64,000 nucleotides of DNA from Chitinophagales bacterium (GTDB taxonomy: Bacteria; Bacteroidota; Bacteroidia; Chitinophagales; CAIOSU01). Positions 3,001-53,067 of the stretch are shown piece by piece. Position 1 is the first letter of the stretch. Each line of letters opens with the position of its first letter. The notes under the pieces are model-generated. The model made no database searches. It saw only the letters and a list, made by a program, of their open reading frames with translations, and was not told where the DNA came from. A program made the translations under genes and the position numbers. The DNA lies in assembly GCA_018401955.1 (NCBI GenBank), contig JAGYJT010000012.1, forward strand, positions 10,303-74,302. The letters are read 5' to 3'.

Positions 3001-5889
3001 GATGACCTTGCGCTGTATTTCAATAAGCTCTTTATCTTCGGGCTTGACAGGGGGCTTTTTAGGAGGGGCAGGTGCACGCCGTCCTGTTTCAACAGGTAGC
3101 TCTTTCTCAACCGGAGCGCCCTTAGCTTCTTGAGTAACCTCATCAATATTACCGCGAAGCGCCTGCAGTGCAGGGCCAATACTGCGAATCCGACCTTCAG
3201 TTGTAGGCTTACTTACCCTATCAATAAAAGCTTGGAACGGTGCACGAAGTTTTAGTTCCGTGTCAGTGCGCTCTTCACCAGTCAAAGCAGGGCGTCGGGA
3301 TGTAAGCCGAGCTGCGTCAATTTCTTTCATAGCCTGCGTGATATAGGCATCGGCTGCTTGCGTAGCATCTCGTTGAAGTGTAGAAAATAACGACGTGCCC
3401 GCTTCTGGCGCACGGGTAAGCCCCGCTCGGAGTTGCTTTATTTCACCTTCAAGCTGCGTAAGTCGGCGTTGTAAATTAGCACTTGCTTGCGCATTACGTT
3501 GCACACCAGGCTGCGCCAAGCGGTCTTTAATCTGGTTGGCTTCTCTGGTAGCTAAAAATATCCGGTCTCGCAGCCCTTGATTGCGCTCGCGCTCTTCCGT
3601 TGCAAGTCTTTCAGGAACACCCTCACGATCACTAATAAACTGACCGCGCTGCAGGGGGTAAACAGCATCACGAAATGCTTCAAAAGCTGTATTTTTAAGC
3701 GGGGGTACGTCTTTGAACGCATCAATGGCGTCTTGTTCGGTAGGCGCGTCTTTTAACTCTCGTGTTTGCTGCTCTACCATACGACTAAACGGCTCTTGAC
3801 GCAGTTGTTCTTGTCGGTCAAGTTCTAGGGCTTGTTCAAACCTAGCCTGCGCATCCTCAGCGGCTCGTGCGTCTAACTTGGAAAGGCCAACCGTACGCAG
3901 ACGGTTAAGCTCCTGCATCTTGGCTTCATCGGCAACAGCCTGACGGCCTGCGTCGGTAAGCTCACCCTTTTCATCAAGTAGCTCGACCCGGTTATTAAGT
4001 ATGTCGTAGAAACGCCCCTGCCTCTGCTCGTTGAGCGAGCGCATTGCGTCTTCAATCTGGGGTAGGGCTTTGTCTGCAGTAGTACGCTTATCAACAGAAA
4101 TGCCAAGAAGCTCTGCCGTAGGGGGTAACACAATACCCCGGTTGATTTGCTCTTCAATCGCTTTACGGCGTGTGGCAGGAATACCCAGCGCAGACAAGCC
4201 CATATTCTCAAGGCCAAATTCAATGCGCTCAAGTGCTTTAGCCTGCGCCTCAGCCGCTTCTCTTTCTTGCTCTGTCTGCTGACGTGACTGTCGAATGATG
4301 CGCTTGGATACGTTGAATACGTTCTCACCACGCTGGATCTTGGCTTCTTCCTCAGCAACAAGCCGGTCTTGTTCCGCAAGCTGGGCTAGGTTTTCTTCAC
4401 CAAACAAAGAGGGTTGTGTCTGAGCCTGGGCGATTTCTGCTTCAAGAGCGTTTACTCTGCTTGCCAAACCCTCAATTTTGTCAAATTCACCAAGGTCACC
4501 AGCTTTTACAAGCGCCTTCTTAGCGGTATCCAGCTTTTTATTAAGCGCCGCAACAGGGTCCAGCCCACCTTCAACAGGCTTTACAAGCTTTACTTTATCT
4601 GCTTTTGCTTGTTCTTCAATCTGCTTGAGCATGCTTTGAAGGCGTTTACCTTCTTGAGATAGCTGTACAGCTTGGGCGCTATCGCCTGCCTGTGCAGCGG
4701 CAGCAGTGGGTTCTTTTAGTGCCTCAATCTGGGCTACGAGCTGCTGATATGTCGTTTGCAGTTCCTGCGCACGCTCAGCTTTGGCGGTTTCTTCTGCTTC
4801 AACTTCTTCTTGCCTTTGCCCAAGCATCGACACAGGACCTAACAGATCGCCCTGCATGGTGGCTTCTTCACCGGTTAGTAGGGGGGCACCTGCTTCTTCT
4901 GCAACCTTACGGGATTCTTCTTGGTCGGCAATTAGTTGTTGGCGGCGTTGCTCTTCAGCCGTAATCTCAGCTTCGCGCTTTTCAACAGCAGTCTGGATAC
5001 CACGACGCTCAAGGTAACGGCCCGGAGGGGCGAGCACGCCCCCAAGAACAGCGCCGCCAATAAAGCTTTCAAAGTATTCATCTCGGGCGTCTTCGTCGCT
5101 CATTGTTAGGCCAGCCTGTAAACGCTCAAGGGCCTGCTGCGCAGTTTCTGTCAACCCCTCCACGCCCATCGTGCGTCCCGTGGCTAAAGCGTAGTCAGCA
5201 GCGCCATCCTTTAGAGTCTTTTTGGCTACTTCAAGGGCCGCTTCTTCGGTGAGGTCTTTGCCAACCTGCCCAAAAATATTTCGGATAAACGGCAACATCC
5301 GCAAGCTAAGCGTATCGAGCGCCGCCTGGGGCACGGCTGCTAGGGCAGCGTTACCTAAATCCGTTTCGCCAATGCTTTTACCTGTCTCCATCTGACGGAG
5401 CAGGTTAGTACCCGTGAACTGAGCGCCTGAAGCAAGACCTGCCGCACCAAGACCAGCAACCGTAGCTGCCGTACCAGTAAGAGGTGCTAAAGCTGTGGCC
5501 CCAGCAGCGACAAGGGGCGCTGCCATATAGGGTAGAGACTGCCCAAGAAGTTCAGTAGTTTTAGTAAGGGGGGCTTCTAAAAAGCCTTCTTCGGTGGGGG
5601 CAAATGTACGGCGCTGGTAGGCTTGCTCTTCTTCAATGGCCTGTCGTGCAGCCTCCTCATCCATTAAACCCGTGCGCCCGAGGACGGCAAGACCAGCTTC
5701 TTTTACGCCAGAAACACCAGCTTTAAAGGCGGGGACAAATCCAGATTCGGGGGTTGCTTCGGGTTCTACAGGCGTAGGGGGTTGGAGCTGCGCCATTACG
5801 GCAGCTATGGCTTCTTCATCCGTTAACTCACGTCGTGAATTAACATCAAACGATCCCTGCCCAGGGATGTTTACTTTATAAAGGGGCAT
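1..5889 (-). CDS. Giant virion-associated protein, N-terminal 1,963+ aa (3' end outside window); possibly PLxRFG-type large internal protein
   Basis: ATG at 5889-5887. My manual translation of this frame reaches base 1 without a stop (5,889 nt = 1,963 codons). The ORF track shows only short out-of-frame ORFs here, and it appears to omit ORFs with no in-window stop. Begins MPLYKVNIPGQGSFDV, followed by long A/E/K/Q coiled-coil stretches. AAHELVGHYTLEGLLG lies near nt 1585-1612 and SRKDYIPFYR near nt 402-420. Confidence 0.75.
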   Translation of the reverse strand, partial: MPLYKVNIPGQGSFDVNSRRELTDEEAIAAVMAQLQPPTPVEPEATPESGFVPAFKAGVSGVKEAGLAVLGRTGLMDEEAARQAIEEEQAYQRRTFAPTEEGFLEAPLTKTTELLGQSLPYMAAPLVAAGATALAPLTGTAATVAGLGAAGLASGAQFTGTNLLRQMETGKSIGETDLGNAALAAVPQAALDTLSLRMLPFIRNIFGQVGKDLTEEAALEVAKKTLKDGAADYALATGRTMGVEGLTETAQQALERLQAGLTMSDEDARDEYFESFIGGAVLGGVLAPPGRYLERRGIQTAVEKREAEITAEEQRRQQLIADQEESRKVAEEAGAPLLTGEEATMQGDLLGPVSMLGQRQEEVEAEETAKAERAQELQTTYQQLVAQIEALKEPTAAAAQAGDSAQAVQLSQEGKRLQSMLKQIEEQAKADKVKLVKPVEGGLDPVAALNKKLDTAKKALVKAGDLGEFDKIEGLASRVNALEAEIAQAQTQPSLFGEENLAQLAEQDRLVAEEEAKIQRGENVFNVSKRIIRQSRQQTEQEREAAEAQAKALERIEFGLENMGLSALGIPATRRKAIEEQINRGIVLPPTAELLGISVDKRTTADKALPQIEDAMRSLNEQRQGRFYDILNNRVELLDEKGELTDAGRQAVADEAKMQELNRLRTVGLSKLDARAAEDAQARFEQALELDRQEQLRQEPFSRMVEQQTRELKDAPTEQDAIDAFKDVPPLKNTAFEAFRDAVYPLQRGQFISDREGVPERLATEERERNQGLRDRIFLATREANQIKDRLAQPGVQRNAQASANLQRRLTQLEGEIKQLRAGLTRAPEAGTSLFSTLQRDATQAADAYITQAMKEIDAARLTSRRPALTGEERTDTELKLRAPFQAFIDRVSKPTTEGRIRSIGPALQALRGNIDEVTQEAKGAPVEKELPVETGRRAPAPPKKPPVKPEDKELIEIQRKVINDNVVEVSNNQKKLARITTQLQKAGSELARLRKQVAGKKDPEARARIKELEKQMVAARKEAGILKNENKKTVELLKKQGVDTSINRDGEFVLRQIEEDGDWAQQQRDTRGAISVADRRSAVEALKKRITATQNRLKAAEKVEEDLTAALQIGRMKTPEGKELPVTKVRRELEDVAFEKRPEAIADELEILAKQRAELEKQKETATPKERQSIGGKLAANTKNANRLKAMQTVALPVRTKETIYGTAEDFSEMAEKQRRILLEDVKNQVTRKTELEVMTEAEGIARDQMKVAQAELNAAKDKREQMVAKAKLKSAQTALTRATVARYELQLKLEDLASDKTNANPDDNVFLSLEEADKELKDALSGYRKDANYDWRVGDTDFETAVDASEAAPFIKELEAKAKSQNIKFKVYKDFTEVPMKILKALANQGMSIYADKIKGGVAPDGEVFVIVSHHANLKDLEQTAAHELVGHYTLEGLLGKDGIRRLLKRVETSFPGDAKTGETGVFALAKELGVLREAGDAWLESVESTKALVAEGKMTKAQQVELARMKALREVLAYTTENYMDKAPASKEGAVKKFFKEILFAIRRWLTSSGFKEFKDVSTPELFSLIKSAYKTFDAGKAKTYRNTDGTISLRSAKPRFNPTVNQNVVNAVDKIVAPDTPAYEKLKANLSGLNFRTQFVDRLDSLERIKRIGQATLDKVGKPMLDSLKATDLLYFARKYGQRTSFVSEAMTSGVVQLMKDPKTGEFMLSRDLQKDAASMKGVALALSKAKFGDVQANENFMTAYMAAERAQSKAVGLSKLGANTTPADVKALLDAGRKDSAIQEARKLYNEYNSDLITLLEQSGYLSKAKAAEIKSRKDYIPFYRADASGTVNLFIGDEKIVKMGDLTEQPHLKELLGSDQKIRSIFVNSLQNTNMVMDLALRNLATRNVGFVLQGLDIAKRVGSGKAGTNIIRAKIDGKDEAWEIDTDGTVFGDIPAEIIVKGMDGIKTTIPGFMKL

Positions 5890-23380: not shown

Positions 23381-23523
23381 TTATCCAAGCTTCTTAGAAG
23401 AGTTTGTGCCCTTCGTTGCTGCGCCCGTACCACGAGTCTTAACAGTCTGCGTATTGGGAACATTATTAGGGTATCCACTAGTGTGAGGGACCGGCACGGG
23501 AGTTGGTTGGTTATGCGAAGACA

Positions 23524-50687: not shown

Positions 50688-51251
50688 ATGAGAGTTGAGA
50701 AGAAAGAAAACGGACTGCGCGAGCGCCGCTCCAAAACGGTACGTGCATATCTACTAGAATATACGGCAAAGCATGCCGTGAGCGAACAGGATACCTTGGG
50801 CTTAGCTTTGGCGGCACAAAATGGAGACCTTAGCGCATTAAATACCCTGGTAAACGCCCACCTTAGTTTGGTGAAGACCGTTGCAAGAAAGTATCAAAAC
50901 CAAGGATTATCGTTTCAAGAACTTTGTTATACTGGCAACATCGGCCTCATTAAAGCCTGCAATAGGTTTGATGTGAGCAAGGGCGTAAGTTTTCGTACCT
51001 ACGCTATCTGGTGGATTCGCCAGTCGGTTTCTAAAGCATTACAAGAGCATTTGCGCATTGATGAGGTAAAAGGTGTAAGCCTTACCGACCTATGGGTGAT
51101 ACCAGAGAGCTTTAGTTCATGGGAGGCCATGGACGATGCCGAGCCTTCGCGCAAGCAAATGCATGCCTTTTTAAATACCAAGGTATACGAAATAGCCAAA
51201 TTGAACCCAAAGGCTCACCCTGAGTGCTTTGCTTGGCTGCCCCGTGCATAG
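50688..51251 (+). CDS. Sigma-70-family paralogue containing region 2 only (no recognisable region 4 HTH)
   Basis: LVKTVARKYQNQGLSFQELCYTGNIGLIKACNRFDVSKGVSFRTYAIWWIRQSVSKAL corresponds to region 2.1-2.4. The remaining ~70 aa show no region 3/4 pattern. Confidence 0.6.
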   Translation: MRVEKKENGLRERRSKTVRAYLLEYTAKHAVSEQDTLGLALAAQNGDLSALNTLVNAHLSLVKTVARKYQNQGLSFQELCYTGNIGLIKACNRFDVSKGVSFRTYAIWWIRQSVSKALQEHLRIDEVKGVSLTDLWVIPESFSSWEAMDDAEPSRKQMHAFLNTKVYEIAKLNPKAHPECFAWLPRA

Positions 51252-51412: not shown

Positions 51413-52282
51413 ATGAGGCAGTTGAGAATCAATCAAAGGTTTACCACGCGTGATTCAATAGCGCTTGAGAAATATTTTAGGGATGTATCCAAAGAAACGG
51501 GCATTACCGCTGACGAGGAGGCTATGCTGGCTAAACGTATACGCATGGGCGACATACAATCGCTTGAAACGCTGGTAAAGGCAAACCTCAGGTTTGTAAT
51601 ATCGGTTGCGAAACAATACGAAGGCTTTGGTATGCACCTAGAAGACTTGATAAGCGAAGGGAACATAGGCTTGATGAAAGCTGCCCGGCGCTTTGACGAG
51701 AGCCGCGGATATAAATTTATCAGCTATGCGGTATTTTGGATTAGGCAATGTATACTTAAATCGCTGAACGAAAATGCCCGCATTATAAGGATGCCGAGCA
51801 ATCAGCTTGCACAAATGCAAAAGCTACATGCCACCTTTGGCCGGCTAGAGCAAATGTTTGGCCGTGAACCTTCGGCAGAAGAGCTGGCGCTTGAGCTGGA
51901 TCTTACCCCGGCGGAGGTGAACAAAGTGCTAATGCAATCGCAGGGCGCATCGGCTATATCCATTGATAGGCCAATAGGCAGCAACGAAGATGACGTGACC
52001 TTGCTTGAGCGAATAAAAAACGAGGCTGAGGCTGCGCCAGATGAGGGTTTGATGACTGCATCGGTATCTCAAGAGCTATCAAGGTGCCTGAATAGGCTAA
52101 ATGCACGAGAGGCAGAAGTGATAAGGCTTCACTTTGGTTTGGATGGACGCACGCCGATGAAGTTTGAAGAAATAGCAGATACTATGGGCTTAGGTAAAGA
52201 GCGCGTGCGGCAGCTTAAAGTGCAAGGTATACGCAAACTGCAAAAGCTTACCCAACGTAGCGGATTATTGACTAAAATATAA
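51413..52282 (+). CDS. RNA polymerase sigma-70 factor, Bacteroidota short primary-like (RpoD/SigA-type)
   Basis: MRQLRINQRFTTRDSIALEKYFRDV...ANLRFVISVAKQY...EGNIGLMKAARRFDESRGYKFISYAVFWIRQ...region 4 EVIRLHFGLDGRTPMKFEEIADTMGLGKERVRQLKVQGIRKL. Start set at the internal ATG 51413. Confidence 0.8.
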   Translation: MRQLRINQRFTTRDSIALEKYFRDVSKETGITADEEAMLAKRIRMGDIQSLETLVKANLRFVISVAKQYEGFGMHLEDLISEGNIGLMKAARRFDESRGYKFISYAVFWIRQCILKSLNENARIIRMPSNQLAQMQKLHATFGRLEQMFGREPSAEELALELDLTPAEVNKVLMQSQGASAISIDRPIGSNEDDVTLLERIKNEAEAAPDEGLMTASVSQELSRCLNRLNAREAEVIRLHFGLDGRTPMKFEEIADTMGLGKERVRQLKVQGIRKLQKLTQRSGLLTKI

Positions 52283-52299
52283 CAAAGAGCATCTTTTCA

Positions 52300-53047
52300 T
52301 TGGTTTTGAGACCTAGAGGTACAATGTGGGACTGTCCGCCTGCCACACAAGTGGTCAGTCCCTACCTTTGGGGTTTGGTTATCGGTTAACTGGTTATTAG
52401 TTGATTGGTGCCAAAACCGAAAAAAAGAAAAAAATGCCCAGCTGCAAGCTGAGCCAAAAGTATAAAGGGTACTATTTACCAGTTAACCACTAACAAGTAA
52501 CCAGTAACCAAAAAAATGAGGTTGGTTTTGAGACTTAAGGAAAAGGGCTGCTGCGGCAGACTGCAAACTACCGCAGCGGCCTCCTTAAAGTAGTTACTAG
52601 TTGATCGGTTATAGGTTGATTGGTTTCAAAACCAAAATAATGTGAGAACAAAATGCCCAGCTGCTAGCTGAGCCAAAAGATATAATGAGTAACGTTTACG
52701 AGTAATGGTTAACCAATAACCAATATACCGGTTACAAATAACCAAATAAAGAGAACACCCTTGCTCGCTCTCCACACACCGAGGTAAGGTTGGTTTTGAG
52801 ACTTAGAGGAAACGAGGGTTGCATTGCGGGCCCATTGCAGTGCAACCCTACCTTTAAGGAAGTGTGGGTTTAGTTATCGGGTAATGATAACAACAAAATG
52901 AACAATGGCTGAGTGTGTAAACGAAGTAAAGGGATTTAACGAGTACAATTTACCAGTTAACCAATAAACTAGTAACTGGTAACCAAAGATAGAGGTTGGT
53001 TTTTGAGACAGTAAAATTTCGGCTCCTAGCAATAGGGGCCTTTACTG
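52300..53047. repeat. Four tandem units: conserved box (G)GTTGGTTTT(T)GAGAC plus long hairpin with unit-specific stem, interleaved with AACCA/GGTTA word-repeat arms
   Basis: Box copies at 52300, 52520, 52788 and 52995. Hairpins: GGGACTGTCC/GGTCAGTCCC (52328-52362), GGCTGCTGCGG/CCGCAGCGGCC (52546-52581), GGGTTGCATTGC/(T)TGCAGTGCAACCC (52816-52848), and GGCTCCTA/TAGGGGCC (~53021-53040). In units 1-3 these are enclosed by an outer stem (TAGAGG.../...CCTTTA). Confidence 0.8.
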
Positions 53048-53067
53048 TTTTAAGGGTAACTATGGTG

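Follow-up and report, generated by a model that had tools for sequence, protein, structure and literature searches.

What occupies the gap between two convergent genes at positions 52283-53067 of the window analysed here (a 64,000-nt stretch of a contig from a Chitinophagales bacterium, to which all coordinates and strands refer), and does it function as RNA or as DNA? The gap is bounded by the TAA codon (52280-52282, + strand) of a gene that encodes a sigma-70 family factor and by the stop codon (53068, - strand) of a PorP/SprF gene. Within 52298-53009 it contains four copies of a short sequence, the box, each with a two-tier hairpin on its 3′-side; the stem sequences differ from hairpin to hairpin and pairing is kept. 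The array is real: it is a structured RNA, conserved and with covariation, that is absent from Rfam, and in kind it is a tandem RNA array of a 3′-untranslated region (3′-UTR). We put at about one half the probability that it consists of lineage-specific structured RNA modules that form a 3′-extension of the sigma-factor mRNA. An initial annotation of the region, made from its sequence, had reported the boxes and hairpins and missed both the tie of the element to the sigma gene and the nature of its last unit, a terminator.

Four tandem copies of the box are indeed present, at coordinates slightly corrected from those first given. The core TTGGTTTTGAGAC is located at 52300-52312, 52522-52534 and 52790-52802, and a fourth copy with one added T is at 52996-53009. 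The 15-mer GGTTGGTTTTGAGAC, described initially as the conserved element, is matched exactly only in box 2 (52520-52534, + strand) and box 3 (52788-52802, + strand). Box 1 (CATTGGTTTTGAGAC, 52298-52312, + strand) reads CATTGG..., with two mismatches to the 15-mer and the core intact, and box 4 is GGTTGGTTTTTGAGAC (52994-53009, + strand). The box-to-box spacings are 222, 268 and 206-207 nt. With up to three mismatches allowed there are 12 matches to the 15-mer in the window, with 2.2 expected and 12 reached by none of 100 shuffles, and the four array boxes alone carry meaning. Two others, at 23505 and 23595, were considered as a second site in the window, lie in an unrelated, coding-looking stretch and were rejected. 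Box and hairpin recur as annotated; the true repeat is, however, the whole unit of 206-268 nt, formed by box, hairpin (HP1) and spacer, rather than box and hairpin alone, and unit 4 is a shortened terminal unit, a box joined to an intrinsic terminator.

A semi-conserved stretch, AAAGAWWGAGG or CUGAAAUGAGG, precedes the box, and the outer stem of HP1 starts at the last base of the box. This stem is A/U-rich and 8-10 bp long (CUURAAGG/CCUUUAAG), and leads through an A-rich internal loop of 4-6 nt to a GC-rich inner stem of 9-15 bp and an apical loop. In the minimum free energy (MFE) fold, HP1 of unit 1 (52312-52372, + strand) has a 10-bp outer stem with G.U pairs and a 6-nt internal loop before the inner stem, and its loop (...UGCCACA...) belongs to the class designated A below. 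HP1 of unit 2 (52534-52590, + strand) has a class B loop, GACUGCAAACUA, and HP1 of unit 3 (52802-52858, + strand) a class D loop, GGGCCCAUUGC. In the terminal unit, hairpin and T-run together occupy 53009-53051 on the + strand (hairpin 53009-53047), with an outer stem CAGTAAA/TTTACTG and an inner stem GGCTCCTA/TAGGGGCC. Folding thus returned all four hairpins with the stems quoted in the initial annotation. The spacer is usually a second, long imperfect hairpin (HP2) with GGTTA-rich and TAACC-rich arms, each with a periodicity of ~7 nt. HP2 of unit 1 extends over 52374-52512 on the + strand (GGTTA arm 52374-52410, TAACC arm 52471-52512; MFE -40.4, z -6.1). The spacer of unit 2 (52591-52787, + strand) has both arms and, at 52750-52773, a remnant (...CTCGCTCTCCACAC) of a different module, HP3, whereas that of unit 3 (52859-52994, + strand) has degenerate arms (z -0.7) and is without the GCCCAGCTGC hairpin. 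Spacers are 87-220 nt long, homologous to one another, structured and non-coding. The 35-mer AGAA(A/C)AAAATGCCCAGCTGC(A/T)AGCTGAGCCAAAAG, noted earlier as common to units 1 and 2, is present at 52426-52460 and 52645-52679. When the whole region is folded, both strands are far below shuffles, with z values of -12.6 (+ strand) and -9.8 (- strand).

A search of relatives, as had been proposed, found boxes beside hairpins in nine further contigs, L067, L099, L149, L174, L180, L181, L182, L183 and L184, making ten loci with the window. L067, L099, L149 and L174 are contigs of Bacteroidota metagenome-assembled genomes (MAGs) obtained by scanning one genome per species with an 18-nt degenerate box pattern; among the matches listed, most were due to chance or to a conserved Streptococcus site, and these four were real MAG loci with several boxes each. 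A 22-nt pattern had two matches in JGI metagenome contigs, L180 and L181, both at the same locus, and L182, L183 and L184 were fetched through sigma homologues at 87-91% identity, all three of which carry the array. A sigma orthologue lies directly 5′ of the array in L067, L099, L149, L174 and L181 (80-89% amino acid identity to the window gene), and the array-bearing orthologues overall are 80-96% identical. L180 starts within the array, and its PorP and CHU_C genes place it at the same locus. The arrays have from 3 to ~9 units, and unit 1 begins 17 nt past the sigma stop codon in the window, L149, L182 and L184. The downstream gene varies (PorP, a peptidase and others, with PorP in some contigs only) and is convergent wherever the contig extends to it; L181 and L182 end before that point. 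It is the sigma gene, and not PorP, to which the element is tied. More distant sigma orthologues (L185-L187, 59-67% identity) have no array, and have a plain hairpin and T-run 10-50 nt past the stop codon. Single-box matches in other Bacteroidota contigs are all within coding sequences, without hairpin or arms. The lineage with the array is narrow and uncultured, labelled Sphingobacteriales, Chitinophaga or Chitinophagales by the submitters, and its MAGs come from pond and soil samples.

The exact 15-mer is also found in 58 viral contigs, in 57 of them as a single copy, a number expected by chance (these 57 were not inspected singly). The remaining contig, L017 (IMGVR_UViG_3300035501_001600, 1-1140), has GGTTGGTTTTGAGAC three times (52, 933 and 970) within a different intergenic repeat (GGGGGTTGGTTTTGAGACTACTAGTTGGTTG..., hairpin CCTTCCCTAATTAGGGAAGG), which the covariance model R1, described below, scores at only 16-19 bits.

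Array composition differs between genomes. Neighbouring units are near-identical in L149 (units 2 and 3), L184 (units 2 and 3), L099 (units 2 and 3) and L183 (units 3-5), which shows recent duplications and a turnover of copy number as in arrays of sibling small RNAs (sRNAs). In some arrays HP2 is replaced by the spacer module HP3, AGUGGAUUG...GCA..CGCACUCC...CUCGCUCUCCACACU, which contains ...CTCGCTCTCCACAC...; it is located at 1230-1330 in L067, 660-735 in L149 and 5150-5225 in L184, is also present in L180, and survives in the window only as the remnant at 52750-52773. In L183, at 4861-4975 and ~5650-5800, AGGAAT/ATTCCT arms take the place of GGTTA/TAACC with pairing kept. Three short-read contigs end inside the array: L001 and L002, which have the window's PorP gene, at positions equivalent to ~52593 and 52564 of the window, and L182 at 241 nt after the sigma stop codon. 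The repeat breaks assemblies, and such arrays are therefore probably under-represented in metagenome assemblies.

A MAFFT alignment of the units proved to be structurally wrong (RNAalifold gave 5 pairs) and was replaced by a hand-given structure and realignment to a covariance model. This model, R1, covers box and HP1 and was built with the hand-given structure from a seed of 14 units. It recovers every unit of every array, with window matches at 52292-52375 (29.5 bits), 52514-52592 (88.1 bits) and 52782-52861 (66.1 bits) for units 1 to 3, and in the 64-kb window and 213 kb of loci it detects nothing beyond the arrays except weak box-only matches. Covariation, for which the initial annotation had asked, was measured on the 31 best units from the ten loci. 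Standard pairs fill 93.1% of the cells, compared with 76.1% in shuffles, changes on both sides are present at 18 of the 23 pairs (12.5 in shuffles), and the covariation score is 0.507, against 0.220 for shuffles and no more than 0.193 for slid-partner controls. None of 500 shuffles equalled even one of these observed values. The MFE folds of 36 of 36 units from the ten loci have the same two-tier hairpin, with a mean z of -5.3 relative to shuffles, and three further terminal units also fold in this way. A conserved flank with variable, still pairing stems argues for selection on structure, as initially claimed, and the claim is borne out by the 31 homologous units.

Several observations identify the strand on which the structure functions. 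There are 75 G.U cells and 22 A.C cells in the alignment, and pairing would fall from 93.1% to 84.7% if read on the opposite strand. HP1 is more stable on the + strand in 34 of the 36 units (mean -29.0 versus -22.9 kcal/mol), and HP2 is mostly more stable on the + strand too, as in L174 unit 2 (-42.1 versus -27.6). Together, the G.U excess and the folding energies indicate function on the sigma gene's sense strand, a result that points to RNA.

Conservation is not confined to pairing. Of 30 distinct units, 29-30 have the box GGTTGG(T)TTTTGAGA unchanged, in genomes whose sigma coding sequences have a fourfold-site identity of 0.36-0.61, near saturation. The HP1 loops can be sorted into classes (A, B, C, D, E and T) whose order is the same in different genomes: every array starts with A (UGYGCCAC), followed by B (CUGCAAAC), then C (CUCCACC), D (CCCAUUGC) and E, with the terminal unit last. 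Unit 2 of the window has a near-identical HP1 hairpin in L099, and unit 3 has its counterpart in unit 4 of L174. The stems of orthologous units differ by compensatory changes, and spacers are fast-evolving. An invariant box combined with class-specific loops suggests sequence-specific recognition, beyond a structural roadblock. The possibility that the units encode small peptides (open reading frames (ORFs) ATGCCCAGCTGC... and ATGAGGTTGG...) was rejected, given the stop codon in unit 2, the frame shifts that accompany changes in T-run length and the compensatory changes. By inspection, no complementarity between box and HP1 loop, as for a pseudoknot, is consistent across the loop classes.

The terminator scan identified an intrinsic terminator in the terminal unit (53021-53040 and then TTTACTGTTT, + strand), a GC-rich hairpin followed by a T-run, and this unit is the sole canonical + strand terminator of the array. 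An equivalent terminal unit closes the array in L067, L099, L149, L174, L180, L183 and L184. The scan detected no terminator between the sigma gene and unit 1 and did not call the internal HP1 hairpins, which keep only ~3 U, paired within the outer stem, and have no free U-run. The terminal unit is the intrinsic terminator of the proposed sigma-plus-array transcript, and its hairpin, 17 nt from the PorP stop codon (53068, - strand), may also act bidirectionally. With unit 1 positioned 17 nt past the sigma stop codon, no intervening terminator and a single canonical terminator in the last unit, the arrangement argues for co-transcription of the array with the sigma gene.

Two minus-strand features had also been annotated, and both are properties of the window. 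The apical parts of the unit 1 and unit 2 spacers, within the 35-mer (GCTCAGCT(T/A)GCAGCTGGGC ATTTT... on the minus strand), do score in the terminator scan as a terminator-like hairpin with T-run (52436-52454, with a second copy at 52655-52673), which was not found in the arrays of the other genomes; it is doubtful that this hairpin is part of the conserved element. The -7-like box TACTTTTG exists on the minus strand as stated, in unit 1 only, and is likewise absent from the other arrays.

The sigma gene (51413-52282, + strand) encodes regions 1.2, 2, 3 and 4, as identified with Pfam, NCBIfam and PDB. The protein is thus a four-region sigma-70 factor, closest to SigA, RpoD and RpoS, and not an extracytoplasmic function (ECF) sigmaE. 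Its amino acid identity falls sharply, from 85-96% within the clade that has arrays to 59-68% and then to ~50% relative to generic primary sigma factors of Bacteroidota and, judged by sequence, it may be a lineage-specific RpoD paralogue rather than the housekeeping sigma factor. Upstream, at 50688-51251 (+ strand), an ORF of 174-187 aa encodes only sigma-70 region 2 and is ~35% identical to the full sigma factor. Such a region-2-only ORF precedes the sigma gene in every orthologous locus (L182-L187 besides the window), array-less distant ones included; a truncated sigma-like partner protein is unusual. The genes in the neighbourhood are sigma, PorP, CHU_C, NlpC/P60 and similar genes, and within ~10 kb of the array (42-64 kb of the window) there are no genes for an integrase, RAYT (repetitive extragenic palindrome-associated tyrosine transposase) or other transposase, Cas12f/TnpB or cas genes.

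If the array is the 3′-extension of the sigma-factor mRNA, transcription of the sigma gene would read straight into it, there being no space for a promoter before unit 1, and would end at the last module, at the hairpin and U-run. Each module would then present the invariant 16-nt sequence (GA)GGUUGGUUUUGAGA directly 5′ of a two-tier hairpin, HP2 arm hairpins would keep the modules apart, and the apical loops would provide the classes conserved between species. The most likely mode of action is that this precursor is cut into sibling small RNAs, as proposed by analogy with CcsR1-4, the closest functional precedent (PMC8034643). RNase III could cut in the HP2 duplexes, an RNase E/G-type enzyme in the U-rich box region, or both enzymes could act. 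The sequence GG|UUUU is preferred by enterobacterial RNase E, and the box contains a match. Alternatively, the precursor may remain uncut and function as a multivalent RNA. Cut or uncut, the shared box would be the recognition element, as a seed or a protein-binding site, to which the class-specific loops would add specificity, and the output of the array would be coupled to expression of the sigma factor. Because the internal hairpins are laid out like the terminal terminator, duplication of a [box + terminator] module probably produced the array, and the duplicated modules would then have lost their free U-run.

A number of points weigh against this interpretation. The structure, its conservation and strand, the link with the sigma gene and the terminator at the end of the array are shown, whereas we infer the co-transcription, processing and trans-action of the array, and the units may contain a promoter for an as yet unknown sigma factor. 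The alignment used for covariation was itself fitted to R1, which favours the model, and its units are related to one another as paralogues and orthologues, so that the cells counted above are not independent events; the independent MFE folds were used as the answer to the first objection. In global folds the box is not clearly predicted to be single-stranded: its unpaired probability, 0.33-0.44, is close to that of the remaining array, since the box can pair with the TAACC arms. The spacers are heterogeneous (HP2, HP3 or degenerate), and uniform processing by RNase III is therefore not guaranteed. Finally, a conserved target for a seed in the box was not found in the DNA examined. One candidate target, a complement to the box in the short sigma-like ORF (50891), was rejected; it varies at synonymous positions between genomes, and so is under no extra constraint.

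The strongest alternative is that the array acts purely in cis, as a stack of terminator-derived 3′-UTR hairpins that shields the sigma mRNA from 3′-exonucleases and/or insulates the convergent genes against read-through and colliding transcription, with no trans product. The array does lie between convergent genes wherever the contig reaches the downstream gene, the internal HP1 hairpins are built like the terminal terminator, from which the units were probably duplicated, and relatives without an array have a single terminator at the same place. That one terminator is enough in these relatives also argues the other way, as do the internal hairpins, which have no U-run and are not called as terminators, and a roadblock leaves unexplained why a 16-nt box is invariant and why loops are conserved by class when neutral sites are saturated. 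We consider a purely cis-acting array unlikely.

Less probable still is that the units are independent tandem sRNA genes, as in NsiR1, each with a promoter for the adjacent or some other alternative sigma factor in which the box or its flank is the promoter element. The conserved sequence AAAGAWWGAGG-TTGGTTTTGAGAC just 5′ of each hairpin is in a promoter-like position. The -7 consensus in Bacteroidota is TAnnTTTG, from which the box core TGGTTTTG differs, by inspection, at one position. However, no exact instance of TAnnTTTG is conserved on either strand in any array, and there is no second conserved element at a -33/-35 spacing from the box, the next conserved motif, GTACTAG, being ~50 nt upstream. 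Unit 1 abuts the sigma stop codon, the internal units have no terminator, and the terminal 'gene' would be the terminator hairpin alone. Separate promoters are, on this evidence, improbable.

A further alternative draws on the company the array keeps. Box and hairpin might serve as a multivalent decoy or sensor to which the sigma factor, the short sigma-like protein or the RNA polymerase (RNAP) holoenzyme binds, with autoregulation through 6S-like titration or sigma-dependent pausing. Linkage of the array to the sigma gene pair is strict across all loci, and the box core resembles a non-template -7 element; repetition of an identical site 3-9 times is what titration RNAs typically show, and in the CcsR system a protein encoded upstream binds the downstream RNAs (PMC8034643). 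Against this, neither the 6S nor the 6S-Flavo model is matched, the sigma gene pair is present without an array in relatives, and the likeness to the -7 element, at 5 of the 6 specified positions in a T-rich 15-mer, is weak. We regard such a decoy as very improbable, and there is an even slimmer chance that the sigma mRNA carries 3-9 sites (UGGUUUUG, one mismatch from TAnnTTTG and single-stranded beside the hairpin) for its own product, the partner protein or the holoenzyme, as a device for 6S-like titration or as a 3′-UTR pause array.

That the array functions at the DNA level, as a repetitive extragenic palindrome (REP) or bacterial interspersed mosaic element (BIME) with a RAYT, as attC sites, as a cluster of miniature inverted-repeat transposable elements (MITEs) or as a guide array (dCas12f-sigmaE, TnpB), is hardly credible: intergenic hairpins with a conserved 5′-flank are consistent with it, the strand asymmetry would fit single-stranded DNA too, and sigma-linked tandem guide RNAs exist in Bacteroidota (PMC13472631), but all true copies are at one locus (4 of 4 genome matches among those listed, 2 of 2 metagenome matches and 3 of 3 sigma-fetched contigs), R1 finds no copy elsewhere in 213 kb, there are no ORF cassettes and no integrase, RAYT, transposase or Cas12f/TnpB genes within ~10 kb, the four-region sigma-70 is not an ECF sigmaE, and an invariant short box with a paired variable part is the opposite of a scaffold with a guide.

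As a 3′-extension of the sigma mRNA, the array would be a clear case of a covariation-supported, multi-copy structured RNA coupled to a sigma-factor gene in Bacteroidota. To our knowledge, Hfq, ProQ and CsrA are absent from Bacteroidota, a phylum in which few regulatory RNAs are understood. The invariant 16-mer, the structurally constrained diversification of the hairpins and the rapid change in copy number provide a seed for a new RNA family, and a tractable case for how RNA arrays in 3′-UTRs might arise from a duplicated terminator. The reach is limited to a narrow uncultured lineage.

How does the array compare with RNA and DNA elements already described? The initial annotation could assign no known family, in agreement with Rfam 15, which at gathering thresholds has no matches in the whole 64-kb window (models for 6S, 6S-Flavo, Bacteroidota motifs, HEARO/omega RNA and CRISPR direct repeats included). 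At E<=10 there are sub-threshold chance matches only, for example to mir-84 (25.8 versus 60 bits) and NsiR1 (19.6 versus 39 bits), the latter on the minus strand. NsiR1 of Nostoc is a tandem array of sibling sRNAs with their own promoters. The likeness is in the layout, head-to-tail repeats of ~100-250 nt at a single locus, each with a conserved hairpin; the difference is that here neither a promoter nor a terminator was found for each unit. Intrinsic terminators share with the internal HP1 hairpins the order of A-tract, GC-stem and U-tract, and the terminal unit is one, but they are without an invariant 16-nt box or class-specific loops.

Of the three candidates named in the initial annotation, a tandem sRNA family was the closest, and the REP-like and attC-like proposals failed. 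REPs are sequences of 20-40 nt with a GTAG-type head, present in tens to hundreds of dispersed copies. RAYT-associated REP/BIME elements resemble the array as imperfect palindromes with a conserved 5′-flank, positioned 3′ and intergenic between convergent genes, and can stabilize the upstream mRNA. Here, however, the hairpins are two-tier and 55-65 nt long, the head is GGTTGGTTTTGAGA, and the element was found at a single locus: every true copy among the genome and metagenome matches listed is 3′ of a sigma orthologue, and single boxes elsewhere are chance matches in coding sequences. Arrays of attC sites likewise have repeated hairpins, with structure conserved over sequence and strand-specific folding, but have gene cassettes and R′′/L′′-L′/R′ boxes; these are absent here, with no cassette ORFs between units and neither intI nor another integrase gene within ~10 kb. 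A CRISPR array was rejected on the grounds that what would be its spacers, at 140-255 nt, are homologous between units and structured, with no cas genes within ~10 kb.

Bacteroidota encode sigma-linked tandem guide RNAs that function with dCas12f-sigmaE (PMC13472631). These are also structured RNAs of ~100 nt, in tandem, in the same phylum and linked to a sigma gene. There is, however, no dCas12f gene within ~10 kb of the array, and the sigma factor is a four-region sigma-70 and not ECF, so this precedent does not apply. The guides consist of a scaffold and a variable 3′-guide of 14-16 nt, whereas here the 16-nt box is invariant and it is the paired stems that vary.

The nearest parallel is provided by the CcsR/cuckoo RNAs of Rhodobacter and other Alphaproteobacteria, among which CcsR1-4, four hairpin sRNAs in tandem, are cut out of the ccaF1 3′-UTR by RNase E and bound by the protein encoded upstream (PMC8034643). 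In both systems homologous hairpins follow one another in tandem directly downstream of a protein-encoding gene, on its strand, with a copy number that differs from species to species and a short motif present in all copies. The CcsR/cuckoo RNAs are made out of the upstream gene's 3′-UTR, and the same is proposed here, with processing that we infer. The motif differs, being a CCUCCUCCC loop in CcsR/cuckoo RNAs and here a 16-nt stretch 5′ of hairpins with loops UGYGCCAC, CUGCAAAC, CUCCACC and CCCAUUGC, as does the upstream gene, which encodes a DUF1127 protein there and a sigma-70 factor here, and the phylum, here Bacteroidota. There is no sequence or Rfam relationship. The array is thus a previously undescribed element that resembles CcsR/cuckoo in layout and is unrelated to it in sequence.

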